Below are positions 18,084 through 61,845 of a stretch of DNA of 64,000 nt, in pieces. The translations under genes were made by a program, and so were the position numbers. Source of the DNA: Escherichia virus TH10; the sequence record MT446388.1; one strand, given 5' to 3'. Under the pieces are notes generated by a model. That model did not search any database, was not told the origin of the DNA, and was given only the letters and a program-made list of their open reading frames with translations. Position 1 is the stretch's first letter. Each line of letters starts with the position of its first letter.

Positions 18084-19256
18084 ATGGCAGTAGGTGAAAT
18101 TCAAATTAGTGCCTTGCCTCAAGCAGCTTTACCAATTGACCTTAGTGATATCTTCCATCTTAAGCAGGGTATTGAGGATAAGAGGTGTACTCTTGAGCAA
18201 TTACTTGCTCCACACGCAAGCCTAAGAAATAACCCTCATGGTGTTACTAAAACACAAATTGGTTTAGATAATGTTATTAATGCTCTTCAGTTAGTCGCTG
18301 CAAATAACTTATCAGATATTGTTAATGTAGCTGAGGCAAGAGCAAATCTACAGATTATGTCTTCAGAAGAGGTTAATAACCTTGTTCAGCAACATATTCA
18401 GGACAAGAGCAACCCACACAATACAACTAAGGCACAGGTAGGATTGAGTAATGTTCAGAACTGGACAACATCTAACCTTTATAATGAAGATGCAGATAAG
18501 TATGCTACAGCAAGAGCAGTAAATAACTTGTACAAGGCTGTTCAGGCTTCCTATCCAGTAGGTACTATCCATCTTTCCATGAACTCTGCAAACCCTTCTA
18601 CATACTTAATTTGCGGAGGTACTTGGGAGTTAGTCTCAAAAGGTAGGGCATTGGTTGGTTATGCCTCTGATGCAAGACCAGCAGGTTCTGTATTTGGTGC
18701 TTCAACTGTCACTTTGTCAGTTAATAATATGCCTCAACACTCCCACTCTGTATCTCTTAGTGGTGGTGGTCACACTCATAATGCAACTGTGTCAATCTCA
18801 GCTTTTGACTATGGAACTAAGACTACCAACTCTTTTGACTATGGAACAAAAGCTACTAACACAACTGGCAACCATACACATAGTGTGTCAGGTAACACGA
18901 GTACAAACGGTACTCATGACCATGACGTGTATCCTAGAGAAAATGATGGCACTGGTAATGCTGTAGCTGACTCTGATGGTGGTGGTGCAAGAAGGACATC
19001 AAGGACATCTAGTGATGGCGCACACTCACATAGTTTTAGTGTTACATCTGGTGCATCCGGTAACCACAGTCATACAGTCGGTATTGGTGCTCACAGCCAC
19101 ACAGTTGGTATTGGTTCACATACACACAGTGGTACTGTGACAGTTTCTTCTTCTGAGCATACACATAGTGGTAACACGAATAGTGTTGGTGGAGGTCAGG
19201 CTGTGAATATCGAACAGCCGTCCTTCGTGCTGTATGTATGGCAGAGAACAGCTTAA
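18084..19256 (+). CDS. tail fibre protein with C-terminal His-x-His repeat domain
   Basis: N-terminal duplicated NPHGVTKTQIGLDNV / NPHNTTKAQVGLSNV fibre repeats; C-terminal HSHSVS..HTHSVSG..HSHTVGIGAHSHTVGIGSHTHSG metal-binding-like HxH repeats; ends with terminator. Confidence 0.65.
   Translation: MAVGEIQISALPQAALPIDLSDIFHLKQGIEDKRCTLEQLLAPHASLRNNPHGVTKTQIGLDNVINALQLVAANNLSDIVNVAEARANLQIMSSEEVNNLVQQHIQDKSNPHNTTKAQVGLSNVQNWTTSNLYNEDADKYATARAVNNLYKAVQASYPVGTIHLSMNSANPSTYLICGGTWELVSKGRALVGYASDARPAGSVFGASTVTLSVNNMPQHSHSVSLSGGGHTHNATVSISAFDYGTKTTNSFDYGTKATNTTGNHTHSVSGNTSTNGTHDHDVYPRENDGTGNAVADSDGGGARRTSRTSSDGAHSHSFSVTSGASGNHSHTVGIGAHSHTVGIGSHTHSGTVTVSSSEHTHSGNTNSVGGGQAVNIEQPSFVLYVWQRTA
18804..18863 (+). 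repeat. perfect-frame 30-bp tandem duplication inside tail-fibre gene (SFDYGTKTTN / SFDYGTKATN)
   Basis: tttgactatggaactaagactaccaactct followed by tttgactatggaacaaaagctactaacaca. Confidence 0.8.
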
Positions 19257-19302: not shown

Positions 19303-21660
19303 ATGGCAGATTACAAGTTGAGTGAATTAAACTCAATCGACACAATCCGTTCAGACGACCTTCTTCATGTCAGAGTTAAAAAGAGACCTGAAATGCTAGG
19401 TGATGAAGACCGTCGAATGACCTATCAAGACTTCTTAGCATCTTTTAAGCTTGAAAGATTTGTCCAGATTGCTGGTAGTACTATGACGGGTGACTTAGGG
19501 ATTGTTAAGTTACTCTATGGCGGTAAGGCAGTATTTGACCCAACAGATTCTTCTGAGATTAATATTGGGGATGTTTTAAAGACTTTTAAAATTAACGCAA
19601 ATGGCCTTAAACTAACTATTGCAGATGCTTCGAGGTCAGCAACTGTTTATCATACTCTGAATAAACCAAGTCCTAATGAGCTTGGGATGAGAACTAATGA
19701 AGAGAATGATGCAAGATACTCAAGATTGGCTGTAAAAAACACCTTTAGCAGTACTCAAGCTATTCTCTCTGATAATGAAGCCCTTATTATTAAGAATACC
19801 ACACAAGGTGCGCCAATCTACATTAGTTGCCAAGATGCAGATGGCACTCAAAGATGGTATCTTGGCAATGATGCTTTTAGTAGAGATAACCTTGTTATCA
19901 AAAATGTTAAATATGGTGTCTATTTAGCTCTTTTAGACGGCCTATTATCCGTGAACAAATCACTCCAGATTGTTGGTCAAGTTCGACCTTCTGATTGGGC
20001 TAACTTAGATGCTAGATACTTTACTCAGACAGTCGCTAATCAGAGATTTGCACAGCTAGCTGGTGATAACACCTTTAGGGGTATTAATAATTTTGTAGGT
20101 GAGTTCAAAATTACCAGAGATAATGCTGCGTTAGTTATTAAGAATGCCTCTAATGCAACCGGACTATACCTACTTGGGGTGAAGGCTGACGGTACAAGCA
20201 AATTCTACTTAGGGACTGATACTTCTGACTCTGTAGTTAATCTGCACAACTACAGCACAAGCACAACCATCTCTTTGTCAGATGTGATTAGTGCTACTAA
20301 GACTGTGAGAATCACTGGTCAAGTTCAACCTTCTGATTGGACTAACATTGACTCTAGATACGTTCCGGCAGGAACTTTGAGCAATCTTGCTAAACTCAGT
20401 GACATGAATACTTTTAGGTCTGCACAAATTATTACACAAAATGGTTCATTGTTGCGACTAAAAAACACTGTTCAGGATAATGAACTGTACCTTTCTGGTC
20501 ATAATGCTGATAATGCGAGAAGGTGGTACATCGGGACTGCTGATAGAGCAAACCCATCTAGATTCATTATCCACAATGATAAAACTGTGACCACTATTTT
20601 TATGGAAGATGACTTTTTGCTAAATAAAACTGTAAGGATTACTGGTCAAGTACAACCTTCTGACTTCTCTAACTTAGATGCTAGATACTATACCCAATCT
20701 GCCGCAAACGCAAGATATATGCTTGCAAGCATCACTGGCTCAGCTTCTGAAGCAGATGGCGGTGATGGTGTTGCATGGAATGCAAAAACAGGTCTCTATA
20801 AGGTTACTAACACAAGTGGCCAGTCCTCTCTTCTTGTGTATCACATGTTTTTGGGCACTAGTTCTACGCCATCTGCACAATTAAAGTTTAATTTTAAAAA
20901 TGGTGGGATGTGGTATAGAACAGCAAGAGATAGCTATGGTTTTGAGGCCAGTTGGTCTAAAGTTTACACAGATACTCAAAAACCAACCCCTTCAGAAATT
21001 GGTGCATATACTAAAGCCGAAACTGACCAGAAAATTGCAACAGCAATTAGTGACTCTACAGACCTTAATAAAATCTATCCAGTAGGTATTGTAACGTGGT
21101 TTAACAGTAATGTTGACCCTAATACAGCACTTCCTGGGTTAACTTGGACGTACCTTAACAATGGTGTTGGTAGGACTATCAGGATTGCAGCAGCAAATGG
21201 TTCAGATGTTGCTACAACTGGTGGTTCAGACTCTGTAACGTTGTCTGTTGGTAACTTACCATCACACACCCATAGTTTCTCTGCTACCACTTCATCTTTT
21301 GATTATGGTACAAAGAACACTAATAACACTGGTGCTCACACCCACTCTGTAAGTGGTACTGCTAACTCTGGTGGTGGACACGCACATAGAATCTCACAAG
21401 GTGACAACGCTAACGTACCATCTGGTCGTGTTGCTTCATCAAACTCTGCTCAAACGCACGTTGGTTGGACAGAAAGTGATGGTGTTCACACTCACTCTGT
21501 AAGTGGTTCTGCTGCATCTGCTGGGGGACATGCTCATTCTGTAGGTATTGGCGCTCACAGTCACACAGTTAGTGGTAACACTGGTGGTACAGGTTCTGGT
21601 TCAGCATTCAGTGTTACTAACCAGTTCTACAAGTTAATGGCTTGGGTAAGAACTGCTTAA
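19303..21660 (+). CDS. long tail fibre / receptor-binding protein with triplicated internal domain and C-terminal HxH domain
   Basis: Three copies of V(R/Q)ITGQVQPSDW(T/A)N(L/I)D(A/S)RY spaced ~110 aa; C-terminal GGSDSVTLSVGNLPSHTHSF..FDYGTKNTNNTGAHTHSVSG..GGHAHSVGIGAHSHTVSG paralogous to C-terminus of 18084..19256. Confidence 0.7.
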   Translation: MADYKLSELNSIDTIRSDDLLHVRVKKRPEMLGDEDRRMTYQDFLASFKLERFVQIAGSTMTGDLGIVKLLYGGKAVFDPTDSSEINIGDVLKTFKINANGLKLTIADASRSATVYHTLNKPSPNELGMRTNEENDARYSRLAVKNTFSSTQAILSDNEALIIKNTTQGAPIYISCQDADGTQRWYLGNDAFSRDNLVIKNVKYGVYLALLDGLLSVNKSLQIVGQVRPSDWANLDARYFTQTVANQRFAQLAGDNTFRGINNFVGEFKITRDNAALVIKNASNATGLYLLGVKADGTSKFYLGTDTSDSVVNLHNYSTSTTISLSDVISATKTVRITGQVQPSDWTNIDSRYVPAGTLSNLAKLSDMNTFRSAQIITQNGSLLRLKNTVQDNELYLSGHNADNARRWYIGTADRANPSRFIIHNDKTVTTIFMEDDFLLNKTVRITGQVQPSDFSNLDARYYTQSAANARYMLASITGSASEADGGDGVAWNAKTGLYKVTNTSGQSSLLVYHMFLGTSSTPSAQLKFNFKNGGMWYRTARDSYGFEASWSKVYTDTQKPTPSEIGAYTKAETDQKIATAISDSTDLNKIYPVGIVTWFNSNVDPNTALPGLTWTYLNNGVGRTIRIAAANGSDVATTGGSDSVTLSVGNLPSHTHSFSATTSSFDYGTKNTNNTGAHTHSVSGTANSGGGHAHRISQGDNANVPSGRVASSNSAQTHVGWTESDGVHTHSVSGSAASAGGHAHSVGIGAHSHTVSGNTGGTGSGSAFSVTNQFYKLMAWVRTA

Positions 21661-25443: not shown

Positions 25444-25827
25444 TCAAATACCTGTGCAGCTTCTGTTTTCTAAGAAATACTCAACACCATACATAGCTTT
25501 TTGCATCAAATCTTCTTTAAACTGGATACGATGATTGAGCATAGCCTGTACATCAATATCATCAGGGTGCTTCTCTTTAATATTTGCAGATTGCAGGAAA
25601 TACTCTGCAAGAACACGATACTGATAGTCAGTTACCTTATCAGTCATCTCTGTTAAAGACTCTTCAGAGATTGGTTTAAGTAGTTCACCTTTAGATAGGG
25701 CAACACCTTTAACAATCTGGCAAGTGTCTTCTGGAACACCTGATAAGTCCACATTTGGAAGTTCTGTTGCATTGACTGGTAAATTCATTGCCATAACCAT
25801 TGCAGCAGCTAATAAAATCTTTTTCAT
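25444..25827 (-). CDS. secreted/periplasmic protein (signal peptide)
   Basis: N-terminus MKKILLAAAMVMAMNLPVNA is a classical Sec signal peptide. Confidence 0.5.
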   Translation of the reverse strand: MKKILLAAAMVMAMNLPVNATELPNVDLSGVPEDTCQIVKGVALSKGELLKPISEESLTEMTDKVTDYQYRVLAEYFLQSANIKEKHPDDIDVQAMLNHRIQFKEDLMQKAMYGVEYFLENRSCTGI

Positions 25828-27693: not shown

Positions 27694-28794
27694 TTATTCG
27701 TAATCTCGAATAACTAACCCAACAGGGAACTGTAAAGAACCCTTACGAGTCATCTTCTGGAACTGAACAGTTAAAGGTTTCCCGATAAACTCTTCAGGAT
27801 GTTCAGCAAGATACTGTTTCTTCTCATGAGTAGTCTTCCATGAGACATCTACAAAGACGTTAGGAAGAGTCTCTACGACGAACTTACCATGACCACGTTT
27901 ATCAGTCTTTACACCAGTTACTTTAAACTCTTCAGTGTGCATCTTCTTGTGCTTAATCAAGAAGTATGAACGGTGACAACACTCATAGAAGGAGTCTTCA
28001 GAGATTGAACGGTACATTGCACCTTCAAACTTAGCTTCAACCCACTTATCATGAGCTTCATCAAACTCTTCCCAAGAGTTAACACGACGAGACTTAACAG
28101 GGACAACTTTACAGCCGTCTCTGAAGTCATTCAATGGTGAAGTCTCAATAATATCTCTACGCTCAGGCCACGTCTTAGTGCTGTCACAGATATCATACCA
28201 GTAGAACTGGAGTAGATGTCGGTCTGGATTGTCAGCATTCTTAATCATAGACACAATATCTTCTAAGTCCCAACCATGAGCATAAATCTCACCATCAAAG
28301 TCTTCTACTTGTGGATGCAATTTAAGCAACAAAAGCAAATCTGGGATTAGTTCTTCTGGGACGTTGTAAATAGTATTCTCACGAGAATAAGCCGTGAAGT
28401 TAACTAAATCAGCATCTCTTGAAATCCTACAACGGACACCATCAAGTTTCGGTTGAGCATCAGCAGGGAACTTCAGATACTTTGCGTGACTAACCTTTGC
28501 AGCATCATGAGCAAGCTGTACACCCACCTTTTCAGTATTCTGTGCAGACTCTTTTGTGTAAGCATAACCTTTACGGTCAACTTGCTTTTTATACTTAGCA
28601 GCAACTTCAAAGAGAGCTTGCTGTTCAGCGTTACGCTCATTCTTTTTACCGATGTTTTTAGGTTCTGCTGTATACTCTTCAAACATCATCTTGCCATTTT
28701 CTTTACCGTAGGTTGTGATAACTTTGTCGCCTACAGCAACACATGACCAGACGTTGAAGGAACCATCTTTATTTTGTTTGTACAGAATTGTCAT
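27694..28794 (-). CDS. ATP-dependent DNA ligase (start at ATG 28794 preceded by gagg RBS; ORF track extends to 28830)
   Basis: Nucleotidyltransferase motif I AQPKLDGVRCR (KxDGxR), motif III FDGEIYAHG, motif IV EGAMYRS, motif V LIKHK. Confidence 0.65.
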   Translation of the reverse strand: MTILYKQNKDGSFNVWSCVAVGDKVITTYGKENGKMMFEEYTAEPKNIGKKNERNAEQQALFEVAAKYKKQVDRKGYAYTKESAQNTEKVGVQLAHDAAKVSHAKYLKFPADAQPKLDGVRCRISRDADLVNFTAYSRENTIYNVPEELIPDLLLLLKLHPQVEDFDGEIYAHGWDLEDIVSMIKNADNPDRHLLQFYWYDICDSTKTWPERRDIIETSPLNDFRDGCKVVPVKSRRVNSWEEFDEAHDKWVEAKFEGAMYRSISEDSFYECCHRSYFLIKHKKMHTEEFKVTGVKTDKRGHGKFVVETLPNVFVDVSWKTTHEKKQYLAEHPEEFIGKPLTVQFQKMTRKGSLQFPVGLVIRDYE

Positions 28795-29122
28795 TTTTAA
28801 CCTCTGAGTGATACCAAGTATTGCAAGCATTACATGCGTAAAGCTCTAAGTCATTTTTATCTGGTTTATGAAAACAGTTTGCTCCACAGTGGCAACGAAA
28901 CGGCTTTCCACCAACTGTCAGGATGAAGGATTGAACCTTTCCATCAGGAGTTCGTACAGCATTTTTATTCTTGGCTTCTTTACTCATTTGTGCTATTACC
29001 TGTGTCAGATTTAATATAAGACCTATCACTACGTCTTTTAATGAAATGTACAAAGCATTTTGGTGTATTTTTTGCATCTTTAATATGCAACCTTTCGAAA
29101 CTGAGTACTGTGAAGATTGCAT
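28769..29122 (-). CDS. zinc-finger protein
   Basis: CHCGANC ... CNACN cysteine/histidine cluster in 117-aa ORF. Confidence 0.45.
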   Translation of the reverse strand: MQSSQYSVSKGCILKMQKIHQNALYISLKDVVIGLILNLTQVIAQMSKEAKNKNAVRTPDGKVQSFILTVGGKPFRCHCGANCFHKPDKNDLELYACNACNTWYHSEVKNDNSVQTK

Positions 29123-29357: not shown

Positions 29358-29618
29358 TCATCCATCAATAACAGTAGTGTGTGATTGACCATTTTTGCCA
29401 TATCTATAAGATGTTGTTGTTTGAGAGTTGGGGCATCTGACAACAACAATATCCCTGCTTATAGCATCACCATTGAGTTTGTAGATTTTGCAGTCTTGCA
29501 TCTCTGGAGGGAGGCTGTAAGAGGCATCTTTGTTTTCATAAGATGGGTTACAGCCAGCCAGAAAAATTACTCCAAGTGCAACCATTGCTTTCACACAACT
29601 CTTAACCTTATTGTTCAC
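29358..29618 (-). CDS. lipoprotein
   Basis: N-terminus MNNKVKSCVKAMVALGVIFLAGC has signal peptide ending in lipobox L-A-G-C. Confidence 0.55.
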   Translation of the reverse strand: MNNKVKSCVKAMVALGVIFLAGCNPSYENKDASYSLPPEMQDCKIYKLNGDAISRDIVVVRCPNSQTTTSYRYGKNGQSHTTVIDG

Positions 29619-29750
29619 GATAGTCTACCTCTCTGTATGTTTTTAAATAGTGAGTGATGAGTTCTGGTAATTCACTACGCTTAACGTTTGAACGAAGAAG
29701 TGTCCAGTCAAAACCTTTACCAACCCTTCCCCAGAGACTGTACATTTTCT

Positions 29751-29984
29751 TCATAGCAACTCCAGAATATCAATACGTTCACCTTTGAGTACTCCAGTAC
29801 GGTCTTTTGCAATCTTACCTTCAACAATAAGAATGTGTGCAGACCTTAAAGTGTCACTGTTAAAGGCTTTTACGAACTTGCTAGGCATCACTACAATACA
29901 CATCTCCTGAATCAACTCTGGAGTATAGCAGTTGTCGTGAAGTTGCTGAATAACGTCTGCAAGTGTCATTTTTGATGTCTCCAA
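29751..29984 (-). CDS. hypothetical early protein
   Basis: 77-aa ORF. Confidence 0.4.
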   Translation of the reverse strand: METSKMTLADVIQQLHDNCYTPELIQEMCIVVMPSKFVKAFNSDTLRSAHILIVEGKIAKDRTGVLKGERIDILELL

Positions 29985-30226: not shown

Positions 30227-30742
30227 TCAACTTAGTTTTGCAAACTCTCCGTGGAGTTTAATAGCAGCTTCACAGTAAGCTTTATGGGCTTCTTCTTCCG
30301 TTGTGTATGTTCCTATATGTATAGTCTTGCCGTTATGGTTAATCTGGGCTATCCACTTACCAGACTTGCTTCTACTTGTACCTTTTAAGTTTTTTGATGT
30401 TCTAGGTTGTCTCCTATTAGACATGTTCTGTTCTTTTGTGGCCTCTCTTAGATTGTCCCAAGCGTTATTCAAACCATCTCCATCTTTGTGGTCAATGTGT
30501 TTGTCAGGCCACTTACCTGTCATCCAGAACCAAGCAATTCGGTGATTACCTGTCCTGTATCCTAAAATCTGTGTGTGCATATACACACCAGACCTTGTGC
30601 GCTTAATTGCTCCGGCTTGGCTTCCAATAACCACCCTACTACTATGTGGAGGTCTGCCAATCCATGTTAAGACCCCTGTTTCGGGGTCATAATCTAACCA
30701 AGATTTTAACTGTTCATGTGTGAATCCACAATCTCTCATCAA
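30227..30742 (-). CDS. HNH homing endonuclease with AP2-like C-terminal DNA-binding domain
   Basis: HIDHKDGDGLNNAWDNLREATKEQN HNH motif; C-terminal GTYTTEEEAHKAYCEAAIKLHGEFA; paralog of 53064..53555. Confidence 0.7.
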   Translation of the reverse strand: MMRDCGFTHEQLKSWLDYDPETGVLTWIGRPPHSSRVVIGSQAGAIKRTRSGVYMHTQILGYRTGNHRIAWFWMTGKWPDKHIDHKDGDGLNNAWDNLREATKEQNMSNRRQPRTSKNLKGTSRSKSGKWIAQINHNGKTIHIGTYTTEEEAHKAYCEAAIKLHGEFAKLS

Positions 30743-33468
30743 TGTACCTCATACCAGCTCTTACCAACCTTACCAGTACCAGTTACCAGTGTTTCTTTCT
30801 TAAGACCTAAGTTCTTAGAAGCTTGTCCATAATACCAGTCAGTAACCGCTTTCACCTCTGCCGTCATACTTTCTGGACATTCCCAACTCGTCTCATCGTG
30901 ATATGCGCAGAGTAAACGAGCACCAATAGCTGGTTTGCGACCATTCAACTTCATCAAGCCTTCGTCAATCATACGACGACAAGCAAGGTTAATCGCCTCA
31001 TTTTGAATCTGAGCCTCTGAACCCATCAAAAGATAGTTCAATAATTTGTGTGGAGATTTACACCACAACCAAGCTCCAGCAACCTTTACAAAACCACCTT
31101 TAGAGATTGCAGCGGTCTTACCAAACACCTCTTCAAGTGCCTTTTTAGTTGCTTTGTAGTCAGCTTCCAAGTTATCTAATAGTTTCTTAATCTTTGGCAA
31201 ACGCACAAAGTAAGTCTGTTTAGTTAATGCACCTTCCTGAGTAGTAGCTGCCTTAATAGTTTTAGCAAACTTCTCATCACCTGCACCGAACAGTAGTGCA
31301 TAGATACCATTCTTAGCTTTCTTACGACCTTTGCTAATCTCATGAAGAAGATTCTCATCCTGAGTAGCTCGACAAGTCAAGATATCCTGCTCATCATTCA
31401 AGCTAAAGTAAATACTGTTCAGTGTATGTGCATCAGTCCCTGAATAGACAACGTACAGGTCATTCTCAGAGTCATAGCGAAGGTACTTATCAATCTCTGG
31501 GTTTAGGTACTCATCAAAATGTTTGCAGTAATAGCGTCCATCTTCTTGACGAATGAACTCAATCTCTTCTTTACCTTGCGTTACCGCTTTGGTGAAGTCT
31601 TTATCACCCATAAAGTTACAAAGAAGAACTAGCTGGGCTGAGTTCATATCTACAGATACTACGTTGGTTCCCTCTTCACAAATCCACACTGCCCTCATTG
31701 GTTCCCCATAGACAGCAGCACCAGACGGTACGTTTACAATACCATATTGTGTCATACGTCCAGTTGAAGTACCAAACACCATTGCACCAGCACTAAGGCG
31801 ACCATCAGGACGAATCTGGTTCAACCAACCTTTTTCATCATCCTTTGAGTTCTCAATAGTTCTGCGTCTGTGCATCAAAGTGTAGTATTTAGCAATCTTC
31901 TGTCCAAGCTCACCTTCAATCGTATCATAAGATGATTCAGTAAGTTTTGGTGAAGTACGGATTAAGCAAGGCTCAAGCAAATCTGTGTATTTCTTCACAG
32001 ACCAGTTATGCTCGATGTACTGTACACCTTCATGTTCAACATAACTCAAACCACACCGCTCAATCATTTCCTGCCACTTAGGATGCTTTGTAATCATCTT
32101 TTTATTGTCTTTGAAACGACAAACTTTGACAGGGCGACCATCTGAGTCTTTCTTGTAATTCCAGTCATCTGGAATCCAACCAACTGATTTCAAGTAGTCT
32201 TTAACAACTGCTACCTGAGTCATACGAGAAACTTCAAACTCAATTGGTGTATATGGTGCATCAATCAATCCTGTGTAGCGACTTGACTCAAGTTCAAAGT
32301 GGTTAACAACATGGCTGTTATAGTACTTCACAGTTTTAACAGTTTTTACTGGCTTCCAGTCTTTGCATTTCTTACCAATCTTTGCATTCAACTCGTTGCA
32401 AATTGCACGGGCATCCTTCATTGCTACAAAGCCTTCCTTGTACTCTTCACCAGTTACAGAGTTGGTTGGTGTATAGCAATTTCTCTTTTCAATGTTAAAA
32501 ATCTTTGTAGTTGGCTTACCAAATGGCTTGATTTCGTATGTCTGCATCTCACCGTTACGTACCTGCTGACGATACTTTGTTTTAGGGTACTTGGTAATTC
32601 TCTTCAGTCCATCTGCATGACCGAATGTTTCAACATACTCATTCCAAGCTTTTGCAAACTCTTCTCCAGTGACTTTACCTTTGGTCTTAATAGTTGGAGG
32701 TAGATGTGGTTCAACCTCTGAAGCAAGCTCATTAGTCAACTTGTCAAGTTCCTTTACATGGAACTCCATAAGCTCTTTATCAGCTTTCCAGCCATTGATA
32801 GCTTGTTGACTCATCCAGAAAGATGTTTCTTTAGCTCGCATGTAGGTTTCATAAGTGTCTATGCCACACTTCTTAAGCTTGAGATATTCATTATCAAGTG
32901 CCCGTTTAGTTTTGGCGTTAATACGGATATCTTCTACAACACGAGTGAAGATTTCTGCATTCCACACACCCCAATGTTCAATCTCTGGTTTACGAACACC
33001 AACACGAGCACCCCATGCAGCCAAACCATGAGCACCTTTATAACCCTTTGGAGTTGGTCTATCCATCCACTGAACACGAGACTGGATAAGAGAATCCTGA
33101 AAGAAATTACTCCACGGTTTACACTTTGGATTATCAAAGTTCCATAAATCAGGTGCAATGTGATTGAAAACCCACCAGTCATAACCGAGGCCGTTATGGA
33201 TGCAAAGTCGTTTTGCCTTTAACGCAAACTCAACACCTTCACGTAAACCACCCTTGATGTACTTAGTGTACTTGTGACCGAGGATAGGCTCATCTGTAAA
33301 GACCCATACAGGTGGCTCTTCATCGTCAGATTTATAGTCTGCGAAAGCCATTACGTGCACTTTAGTGAACTCAAGGAGTAAACCATCAGTTTCTGTATCA
33401 CCAACTAAATGTAAGTTTTTAAAATCTACGTTTTCCATTTTTACTCCCTCTAAAATCATTAACCTCAT
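30739..33468 (-). CDS. DNA polymerase, family A, with 3'-5' exonuclease domain
   Basis: N-terminal exo I motif GDTETDGL; C-terminal Pol A motif C YHDE; 909 aa. Confidence 0.85.
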   Translation of the reverse strand: MRLMILEGVKMENVDFKNLHLVGDTETDGLLLEFTKVHVMAFADYKSDDEEPPVWVFTDEPILGHKYTKYIKGGLREGVEFALKAKRLCIHNGLGYDWWVFNHIAPDLWNFDNPKCKPWSNFFQDSLIQSRVQWMDRPTPKGYKGAHGLAAWGARVGVRKPEIEHWGVWNAEIFTRVVEDIRINAKTKRALDNEYLKLKKCGIDTYETYMRAKETSFWMSQQAINGWKADKELMEFHVKELDKLTNELASEVEPHLPPTIKTKGKVTGEEFAKAWNEYVETFGHADGLKRITKYPKTKYRQQVRNGEMQTYEIKPFGKPTTKIFNIEKRNCYTPTNSVTGEEYKEGFVAMKDARAICNELNAKIGKKCKDWKPVKTVKTVKYYNSHVVNHFELESSRYTGLIDAPYTPIEFEVSRMTQVAVVKDYLKSVGWIPDDWNYKKDSDGRPVKVCRFKDNKKMITKHPKWQEMIERCGLSYVEHEGVQYIEHNWSVKKYTDLLEPCLIRTSPKLTESSYDTIEGELGQKIAKYYTLMHRRRTIENSKDDEKGWLNQIRPDGRLSAGAMVFGTSTGRMTQYGIVNVPSGAAVYGEPMRAVWICEEGTNVVSVDMNSAQLVLLCNFMGDKDFTKAVTQGKEEIEFIRQEDGRYYCKHFDEYLNPEIDKYLRYDSENDLYVVYSGTDAHTLNSIYFSLNDEQDILTCRATQDENLLHEISKGRKKAKNGIYALLFGAGDEKFAKTIKAATTQEGALTKQTYFVRLPKIKKLLDNLEADYKATKKALEEVFGKTAAISKGGFVKVAGAWLWCKSPHKLLNYLLMGSEAQIQNEAINLACRRMIDEGLMKLNGRKPAIGARLLCAYHDETSWECPESMTAEVKAVTDWYYGQASKNLGLKKETLVTGTGKVGKSWYEVH

Positions 33469-59584: not shown

Positions 59585-60133
59585 ATGAAGAAATTGATTC
59601 TAGGTTTGTGCTTAATGTTTACAGCACACTTATCTTATGCAGTTGACTGCCCAGAGCTATCAATTAGCCAAAAAGTAAACATGTTAAAAGCTTACCAGTA
59701 TGGTGAGAATAACATGGGCAAAGGTTGGGGTATCACTCTAGCTGCTATAGCCTTACAAGAGTCAGAGTTAGGTCTGAAGGTAGAGAATAAAAAGACACAT
59801 GATTATGGTATTTTCCAGAATCACTTGAAGACTGTTGTAAAGCGTAACAAAATTAGCCCTAATGTGGCTAAAAAGAAACTCTTAAGAGACTTTGATTATG
59901 CTGCGAAGGAAACTCACAAAGAACTTGAGTTTTGGACAAAGGTGCATGGTCAGCCAAAGTCAAAGAAGACTTTACAAAAAGTTTTAGCATCATATAATGC
60001 TGGGTATTCGTACAAAATCCCTAAAGCTAAGAAATATTCTCAAGATGTCTATAACAATATGAAAGTGATTGCTCAATGTGAATTTGCAACAAACATTTCT
60101 AAGGTAAACCATGAAAAAATTAAGAAAGTCTGA
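59585..60133 (+). CDS. secreted lytic transglycosylase-like protein (SLT domain with signal peptide)
   Basis: Signal peptide MKKLILGLCLMFTAHLSYA; SLT-like blocks LQESELG, DYGIFQ, SYNAGYS. Confidence 0.5.
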   Translation: MKKLILGLCLMFTAHLSYAVDCPELSISQKVNMLKAYQYGENNMGKGWGITLAAIALQESELGLKVENKKTHDYGIFQNHLKTVVKRNKISPNVAKKKLLRDFDYAAKETHKELEFWTKVHGQPKSKKTLQKVLASYNAGYSYKIPKAKKYSQDVYNNMKVIAQCEFATNISKVNHEKIKKV

Positions 60134-61334: not shown

Positions 61335-61688
61335 ATGACATTTAAAGAGTTCTGTCAAGCTACTTTCATAATTGTTTTCTTAGTTGGGGCAGGTGTCTGG
61401 GGAGGATACTCTTACAGAGACTACCAAGTTGCTGAAACTGAGCTAAATAATGAGAAACTAATTAGTGTAGCTAAAGACGCTTATCAGGAAGGGTTAGTTA
61501 CACTGAGCACCAATTACAAAAATGATTTGAAAGATGTGCTTGCTAAGAATAAGCATACAAAAGAGGTACTAACATATGAAAAAACTAAGCCAGAGTTTTA
61601 TAATGTTTGTGTTACTGATAATTATGTCAGGGTGTTCAACGAACAAAGTGAACAGTACATTCAAAAACTCCCAAGTGAGCGAGAGTGA
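61335..61688 (+). CDS. i-spanin-like protein (Rz-like, N-terminal TM anchor)
   Basis: N-terminal TM FIIVFLVGAGVWGGY then soluble helical domain; contains embedded lipoprotein gene in another frame. Confidence 0.5.
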   Translation: MTFKEFCQATFIIVFLVGAGVWGGYSYRDYQVAETELNNEKLISVAKDAYQEGLVTLSTNYKNDLKDVLAKNKHTKEVLTYEKTKPEFYNVCVTDNYVRVFNEQSEQYIQKLPSERE

Positions 61689-61845
61689 TAAGTACACTCA
61701 AGAAGATTCAAGATTTACTATCAAAGGTAATACTGGTAGTGATGTGGCAGCAGCCCTTGAGTTCTATCGTGATGGATTTTACCAGTGCACAATCAAAGCT
61801 AATAACCTTATTGATATGATTTTATTAGGAAATAAACAGCAATGA
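61576..61845 (+). CDS. o-spanin-like outer-membrane lipoprotein (Rz1-like), overlapping the i-spanin gene
   Basis: MKKLSQSFIMFVLLIIMSGC signal peptide with lipobox-like MSGC; starts 113 bp inside 61335..61688 in a different frame. Confidence 0.5.
   Translation: MKKLSQSFIMFVLLIIMSGCSTNKVNSTFKNSQVSESDKYTQEDSRFTIKGNTGSDVAAALEFYRDGFYQCTIKANNLIDMILLGNKQQ

Follow-up and report, generated by a model that had tools for sequence, protein, structure and literature searches.

We examined a 64,000-nucleotide stretch of the genome of Escherichia virus TH10 (MT446388.1), hereafter the window, and in particular a short minus-strand gene at 29358..29618. An earlier note, made from the letters of this DNA, had proposed that the gene encodes a superinfection-exclusion lipoprotein that masks the receptor of its own phage. 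The product is almost certainly a true lipoprotein of the PHROG 902 family, which is strongly conserved, dispensable, and uncoupled from receptor-binding proteins. The region around the gene matches 257 phage records, nearly all of them from Felix O1-like myoviruses (Felixounavirus, Ounavirinae) with Escherichia, Salmonella, Shigella, and Citrobacter hosts, and the window is itself a Felix O1-like (Felixounavirus) genome. The features discussed below, including the neighboring open reading frames (ORFs) and their lengths in amino acids (aa), are collected in Table 1.

Table 1. Coordinates in the window of the lipoprotein gene, its parts, and other genes considered in the text
Feature	Position	Strand	Remarks
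Lipoprotein precursor coding sequence	29358..29618	minus	GTG start at 29618, 86 aa, TGA stop at 29358-29360
Type II signal peptide, residues 1-22	29553..29618	minus	MNNKVKSCVKAMVALGVIFLAG; read from sequence by hand with a PROSITE-type rule
Lipobox L20-A21-G22-C23	29550..29561	minus	Cys23 is the predicted lipidated first mature residue
Mature lipoprotein, 64 aa	29361..29552	minus	Variable tether of ~13 residues (CNPSYENKDASYS), then a compact all-beta domain predicted by AlphaFold2 (AF2)
Family motif 1, LPPEMQDCKIY	29481..29513	minus	Consensus LPxELxDCK[IV]Y; holds invariant Cys43 (29490-29492)
Family motif 2, VVRCPNSQTTT	29412..29444	minus	Consensus VVRCPNSxT[ST]T; holds invariant Cys62 (29433-29435)
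Upstream 48-aa ORF, PHROG 2381 (function unknown)	29608..29754	minus	Stop overlaps the lipoprotein GTG
DNA ligase	27694..28830	minus	
HNH endonuclease	30227..30742	minus	
DNA polymerase	30739..33468	minus	
Rz-like i-spanin, 117 aa	61335..61688	plus	N-terminal transmembrane segment; PHROG 1152, E 2e-41
o-Spanin candidate, 89-aa lipoprotein	61576..61845	plus	MKKLSQSFIMFVLLIIMSG/C; out-of-frame 3' overlap; weak Rz-like PHROG match

The lipoprotein gene and its setting

The precursor opens with MNNKVKSCVKAMVALGVIFLAG and continues CNPSY, the cysteine being residue 23. Its n-region carries K4, K6, and K10, and residues 11 to 19 are hydrophobic and uncharged (VALGVIF). Checked by hand and with a regular expression, the protein satisfies the PROSITE-type rule for prokaryotic lipoproteins, that is, a positively charged n-region followed by an h-region without charges and the pattern [LVI][ASTVI][GAS]C with its cysteine at position 15 to 35. 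A six-frame regular-expression scan of the whole window found three ORFs with a lipoprotein signal, namely this gene, the likewise conserved 61576..61845, and an antisense ORF of 40 aa. Which start codon is used is ambiguous: a second in-frame GTG at 29594 gives a precursor of 78 aa (MWKAVIVLGVIFLAGC...), which is the precursor length in most relatives, and a Shine-Dalgarno-like run, GAGAGG, ends 9 nt ahead of the GTG at 29618. Both candidate starts lead to the same 64-aa mature protein, and the relatives bear comparable signals of 15 to 22 aa. Residue +2 of the mature protein is Asn24, with no Lol-avoidance Asp, and by the Escherichia coli +2 rule the lipoprotein is predicted to undergo Lol-dependent sorting to the outer membrane.

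The mature part is under strong purifying selection, with a median ratio of nonsynonymous to synonymous substitution rates (dN/dS) of 0.06 (157 Felixounavirus pairs, dS>0.1). Because of this ratio, the invariance of the lipobox cysteine in 123 homologs, and the conservation of the protein at large, we regard the gene as real, and the small lipoprotein with signal peptide and lipobox described in the earlier note is confirmed. A nonfunctional ORF with a lipobox arisen by chance would be in keeping with the shortness of the gene, its non-ATG start, and its lack of annotation in some records (e.g., phAPEC6). That explanation is refuted by conservation and has a negligible probability: the low dN/dS and the 652 homologous clusters with invariant cysteines speak against it, as do Citrobacter and some Shigella phages, in which the lipoprotein gene is the sole part of an 841-bp segment still detectable at the nucleotide level. 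All public copies of the gene that we examined are annotated "hypothetical protein."

The layout of the window was obtained by mapping onto the annotated relative vB_EcoM_ASO1B. Plus-strand structural genes extend to ~21.7 kb, with tail-fiber genes at 18084..19256 and 19303..21660, and are followed by a minus-strand block encoding thymidylate synthase, dihydrofolate reductase (DHFR), a transcriptional regulator, DNA ligase, small ORFs, an HNH endonuclease, and DNA polymerase. The lipoprotein gene is co-directional and contiguous with the DNA polymerase, HNH endonuclease, DNA ligase, thymidylate synthase, and DHFR genes, and its immediate neighbors are soluble ORFs of 48 and 68 aa. Natural deletions remove the 48-aa ORF along with the lipoprotein, and the ORF is not found beside family members in other phage groups. 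The HNH homing-endonuclease gene, which sits between the DNA polymerase and the run of small ORFs, is variably present among relatives.

Gene order suggests that the lipoprotein is expressed before the late genes, along with the polymerase–ligase block. ASO1B is annotated with a predicted promoter ahead of the polymerase gene and a predicted terminator beyond the ligase gene; our scan of the window for promoters and terminators performed no better than on shuffled sequence. The "minus-strand early cluster" of the earlier note stands in part, as a co-directional arrangement with replication-class genes, its early timing being a reading of gene order on which the promoter scan is uninformative.

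Conservation and spread of PHROG 902

The window protein is a full-length match to PHROG 902 (E 4.9e-18, residues 2-83) and to no other PHROG. A profile search of 1.84 billion representatives recovered 652 clusters (50% identity) at E<=1e-3, 99 of them at E<=1e-10, and the median mature length in the family is 69 aa. The only invariant columns in an alignment of 123 sequences are Cys23, Cys43, and Cys62, with P37, P63, T67, and K75 conserved at more than 90%. The family consensus reads ...Y-x-LPxELxDCK[IV]Y...VVRCPNSxTTT...GK..., and its motifs are invariant in a 16-sequence subset.

An AF2 model built from the 123-sequence alignment has a mean predicted local distance difference test score (pLDDT) of 75, an earlier model from eight close sequences having been too poor for use (pLDDT 54). 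It comprises the signal helix, the tether, and an antiparallel sheet of four to five strands (44-49, 56-62, 65-73, and 76-82). The strands at 44-49 and 56-62 form a hairpin, and because this predicted hairpin puts Cys43 opposite Cys62, we infer that the two would be joined by a disulfide in the periplasm. Members of the family differ in their appendages. A C-terminal helical tail ending in ...KLSxEEKxALGL is found in P0028, P0040, P0103, P0162, and P0163, and an unrelated, non-lipoprotein ORF neighboring a family member (L034:4223-4471) ends in the closely similar KLTPAEIKVLGL. Other members have an extra small module with a cysteine pair or a ...VVIDGVEY... strand.

The predicted anchor also differs between members. 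Asp occupies position +2 in 28 of 203 family members, among them those of the enterobacterial phages CR8 (AGC-DAS) and phAPEC6 (TAC-DAS), for which the sorting rule predicts retention in the inner membrane. This suggests that the anchor membrane is variable and that the target can be reached from either membrane.

A tblastn search located the family in 602 phage records. Outside Felixounavirus, carriers include the 113-kb Vibrio phages (298 records), Certrevirus (Cronobacter phage CR8 and phages of Klebsiella and Enterobacter), Asteriusvirus jumbo coliphages (phAPEC6), Erwinia jumbo phages, and Acinetobacter Saclayvirus. Structural matches in BFVD extend the list to T4-like Aeromonas phages and a jumbo phage of Yersinia. 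By contrast with this spread in phages, scanning one genome from each of 185,579 bacterial species for the motif VVRCPNSxTT, taken from the 16-sequence subset, returned a single locus, in Hylemonella gracilis. Given its near absence from bacteria and its spread among phages, PHROG 902 is essentially a family of virulent phages with Gram-negative hosts. The homolog in H. gracilis ATCC 19624 (NZ_AEGR01000062.1) lies in an apparent foreign island within a high-GC chromosome, beside a helix-turn-helix regulator gene and, on the other strand, one for a large secreted protein.

When the ORFs lying up to 5 kb on either side of 25 diverse phage loci were clustered by BLAST, the lipoprotein was the only gene in common. 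At the loci examined, PHROG 902 genes always lie among small nonstructural ORFs and never beside tail or lysis genes; where their surroundings are annotated, genes for replication or nucleotide metabolism are close by.

Presence of the gene among close relatives was surveyed by blastn in 256 records, with the 841-bp segment (the lipoprotein cassette and both flanking genes) as query. Most of the segment is present in 161 of them. Nine of 60 evenly spaced Felixounavirus records (allfine, BPS17L1, NBEco004, REP9, fKMPT1, S19cd, P219, HY02, and RPN213) match by the flanks only, over a span of ~435-450 bp, and all nine cleanly lack the lipoprotein as well as the 48-aa ORF upstream of it. The deletion was verified in HY02 (NC_028872.1, 60590..61024), where 9 bp separate the flanking genes. 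Phages of E. coli, like those of Salmonella, are found both with and without the cassette, and deletion phages such as HY02 are natural, isogenic-like comparators.

In SUSP1, a member of the sister genus Suspvirus, the same slot holds a different gene of 70 aa (NC_028808.2, 31008..31220), whose match to the Tad2-like (Thoeris anti-defense) Pfam model is just below threshold (24.5 vs. 25 bits). This suggests that the slot is a hot spot for accessory or counter-defense genes. The clean natural absences and the exchange of genes in the slot show the lipoprotein gene behaving as a mobile, dispensable cassette. A CRISPRi-ART fitness map has been published for SUSP1 (PMC11879866); it is uninformative on the lipoprotein because SUSP1 does not have the gene.

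Database annotation of the family is inconsistent. Precomputed tables tag nearly every homolog as PF16225 (DUF4884), and member P0171, the one checked in the gene-level table, carries the tag there without a mark, which denotes E<=1e-5. A local Pfam-A hmmscan, with cutoffs relaxed to E<=1 to 10, matched PF16225 to neither the window protein nor any of the 123 members. The tables and the local scan disagree on a label that denotes a domain of unknown function either way. Matches to LPAM_1, Lysis_col, LptM, TrbK, EexN, and YgdI/YgdR span signal peptides only. For the plasmid entry-exclusion lipoproteins TrbK and EexN, the NCBIfam models gave no match to the window protein, and two other family members scored below threshold through their signal peptides alone (13.5 bits against a cutoff of 23, and 17.5 against 33). 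A BFVD fold search returned only fellow PHROG 902 members, none of known function, and we did not find the family in the literature on Felixounavirus lipoproteins, Felix O1 exclusion, DUF4884, or phage-encoded lipoproteins. The gene is already in the databases, uncharacterized and without a relationship to characterized phage lipoproteins.

Comparison with Llp, Cor, and spanins

Apart from the spanins, the small lipoproteins of virulent coliphages that are well understood are, to our knowledge, limited to Llp and Cor. The PHROG 902 protein resembles T5 Llp and the Cor proteins of T1, phi80, and N15 in its small size (likewise ~60-65 mature residues), short type II signal, and single conserved cysteine pair, and also in its occurrence in virulent phages, its origin in nonstructural regions, and its periplasm-facing disposition (PMC9586334). 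Expression of 29358..29618 probably precedes that of the late genes, which would further suit an Llp/Cor-type mode of exclusion, in which the lipoprotein blocks the receptor of its own phage from the periplasmic side and so shields cells and progeny. We nevertheless consider such masking improbable, since homology, fold, position, receptor type, co-variation, and anchor all disagree with it.

Profile matching places T5 Llp (E 1e-19) together with the Cor protein of T1 (E 3e-30) in PHROG 1119, annotated "Cor superinfection exclusion protein," whereas at E<=0.01 the window protein matches PHROG 902 only. An hhalign comparison with Llp gave a probability of 51% over an alignment made up mainly of signal peptide, and Llp is absent among the fold-search matches listed. 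Membership of the Llp/Cor family was rejected on the PHROG assignment, hhalign, and the fold searches, with no homology detectable.

Position differs as well. Llp and Cor genes lie beside or inside a tail or receptor-binding module: in T5, 80 bp separate llp from the receptor-binding gene oad, with llp described as lying next to and downstream of pb5 (PMC9586334), and T1 cor is inside the tail-gene region. In contrast, 29358..29618 is 7.7 kb from the tail-fiber gene 19303..21660, between the DNA polymerase and HNH genes on one side and the DNA ligase gene on the other, and a receptor-binding neighbor is missing from all 25 loci. The statement in the earlier note that small phage lipoproteins in this position are known receptor blockers is therefore not borne out, as llp adjoins oad and the present gene is placed among replication genes.

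The target of Llp and Cor is FhuA, a TonB-dependent transporter. Felix O1 and its relatives are reported to target lipopolysaccharide (LPS) and not protein receptors, and the Felixounavirus isolate of the BASEL study was wholly dependent on an intact LPS core (PMC8594841). For a genus that uses LPS, masking of a protein receptor has no obvious glycolipid counterpart. Moreover, the lipoprotein is near constant while the tail fiber diverges. By tblastn, lipoprotein identity is at least 95% in 39 records and 80-95% in 96, and identity of the 785-aa tail fiber is at most 80% in any record and mostly 48-74%. The same motifs recur in phages whose hosts belong to different bacterial orders, among them Vibrio, Acinetobacter, Aeromonas, and Erwinia. 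Unlike Llp and Cor, PHROG 902 is conserved across phages with unrelated receptors. The members with Asp at +2 are a poor fit with docking onto an outer-membrane barrel, and for a family apparently tethered to either membrane a periplasmic target is more likely than such docking. On these grounds (a different PHROG, a reported LPS receptor, and a constant lipoprotein against a variable fiber), masking of the phage's own receptor in the manner of T5 Llp is disfavored.

A second comparison is with the lysis proteins. Like Rz1-type o-spanins, the product of 29358..29618 is a small lipoprotein of a Gram-negative phage with an outer-membrane-type signal, and the Felix O1 genome paper found no classical lysis cassette (PMC3185647), so that an o-spanin or other lysis component might be sought here. 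The window, however, has a separate overlapped pair at 61335..61845 that, judged by its sequence, is a classic overlapped spanin arrangement of a putative i-spanin and o-spanin. Unlike Rz1-type o-spanins, the lipoprotein gene has no adjoining i-spanin-like gene, its predicted domain is folded and beta-rich instead of proline-rich or disordered, and it is naturally missing from viable relatives. In Vibrio phage D239, too, lipoprotein and spanins coexist, the family member lying in the replication region and the Rz-like spanins being annotated separately at another place. An o-spanin identity for 29358..29618 is very improbable and effectively refuted by the spanin pair.

Approximately 1.2 kb upstream of the spanins, the plus-strand gene 59585..60133 encodes a protein of 182 aa with a Sec signal (MKKLILGLCLMFTAHLSYA/VD) that belongs to PHROG 600, a family of unknown function. 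Its match to the SLT lytic-transglycosylase model is below threshold (19.4 vs. 21.3 bits), and the protein could be a secreted muramidase.

Candidate functions

As the best explanation of the whole, we tentatively propose that the product of 29358..29618 is an accessory lipoprotein acting as a stand-alone periplasmic effector that confers a competitive advantage at the envelope. The conserved signal and cysteine triad, the pan-phage spread, the lack of a partner gene, the dispensability, and the decoupling from the tail fiber lead to this proposal. The protein would be exported by Sec, lipidated on Cys23, and cleaved by signal peptidase II, as its signal implies, and the Felixounavirus version would be anchored in the outer membrane. 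According to the model, a beta-domain of ~50 residues would then hang in the periplasm on a tether of ~13 residues, locked by the putative disulfide, and might bind an envelope or periplasmic component conserved across gamma-proteobacteria without help from a phage partner. The target is probably such a conserved envelope component, as opposed to the receptor of the phage itself. The payoff would be a nonessential advantage, possibly the exclusion of secondary or competing phages after adsorption, for example while these cross the periplasm or peptidoglycan.

A biological role in exclusion is possible but doubtful, and is modeled on T4 Sp and Imm. These are early accessory envelope or periplasmic proteins of a virulent myovirus that act after adsorption on entry and are unlinked to the tail-fiber genes. 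Neither is a lipoprotein: Sp (spackle) is helical and soluble in the periplasm, and Imm resides in the inner membrane. The comparison serves as a working analogy for the mechanism. An envelope-level accessory role such as exclusion is the single most plausible functional category. The superinfection-exclusion factor of the earlier note is thus retained as an exclusion-like role at the envelope, and its Llp-style receptor masking is not.

It is also conceivable, if rather unlikely when taken singly, that the lipoprotein is a periplasmic host-takeover or protective factor with no part in exclusion, one that stabilizes the infected cell or protects phage DNA or progeny. From its tether it might inhibit a conserved enzyme of the periplasm, for example endonuclease I, a protease, a lytic transglycosylase, or a muramidase, or it might modulate machinery of envelope assembly or stress. 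Conservation of the motifs across hosts, the stand-alone gene, and the varying membrane anchor all agree with such a factor, and an anti-defense-like gene occupies the slot in SUSP1. A disulfide-locked beta-domain also recalls periplasmic lysozyme inhibitors, in general style only. Set against these points, sequence and fold searches gave no link to a known inhibitor family, and the gene is dispensable in about one-sixth of the relatives sampled. The computed evidence does not separate this host-takeover role from exclusion.

Several considerations weigh against the proposal of a stand-alone effector with an exclusion role. Pfam, NCBIfam, and PADLOC scans of the family yielded nothing above threshold, and PDB sequence searches with two profiles retrieved only the signal peptides of unrelated lipoproteins and no relative. 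PHROG 902 records are all "hypothetical protein," with no homolog of known function among them. The conserved motifs could be purely structural, maintaining the disulfide hairpin, and not a binding surface. The +2 sorting rule is established in E. coli, and its strength varies with the +3 residue. The timing of expression is inferred from gene order alone. Lastly, exclusion was chosen mainly from prior knowledge of the early envelope proteins of virulent phages and is a committed guess, and the data do not distinguish it from further roles at the envelope.

With at least 652 clusters, PHROG 902 is a different and much larger lipoprotein family than Llp and Cor, common to Felix O1-like, jumbo, T4-like Aeromonas, 113-kb Vibrio, and Acinetobacter phages, and its distribution argues for a different, receptor-independent logic from that of the characterized phage lipoproteins. 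Speculatively, and with more doubt than confidence, its members may be unrecognized pan-phage envelope effectors encoded by single genes. A tethered, disulfide-locked mini-domain would bind a host machine of the periplasm or outer membrane, or a peptidoglycan-cleaving activity, conserved between Vibrio, Escherichia, and Acinetobacter to bring about receptor-independent exclusion of competitors or protection of the infected envelope, and unrelated virulent phages would trade the gene horizontally as a one-gene cassette. If the target is conserved, the family would represent a receptor-independent route by which phages remodel or defend the infected envelope. Felixounaviruses are widely used in the biocontrol of Salmonella and E. 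coli, and such a route, if real, would be relevant to the design of phage cocktails. The lipoprotein might then also yield a compact probe or inhibitor for an envelope function conserved in Gram-negative bacteria. Should the effect be only marginal, the gene would be another accessory gene without an assigned function.

The minus-strand block contains a second gene with an export signal, at 25444..25827 (minus), and the description of its product as Sec-secreted in the earlier note is plausible. The protein has 127 aa and a plausible Sec signal (MKKILLAAAMVMAMNLPVNA/TE, with cleavage after VNA). Searches of Pfam, NCBIfam, and PADLOC gave no relative, its only match being to PHROG 4332, a family of unknown function.

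Three anomalous database records contain Felixounavirus DNA, recognized by 86% identity or by Felix-like tail fibers: GU169904.1 ("Staphylococcus phage SA1"), MG065664.1 ("Campylobacter phage A132"), and the over-long MG969406.1 ("Salmonella phage GE_vB_B3," 109 kb). These are probably mislabeled or chimeric deposits.

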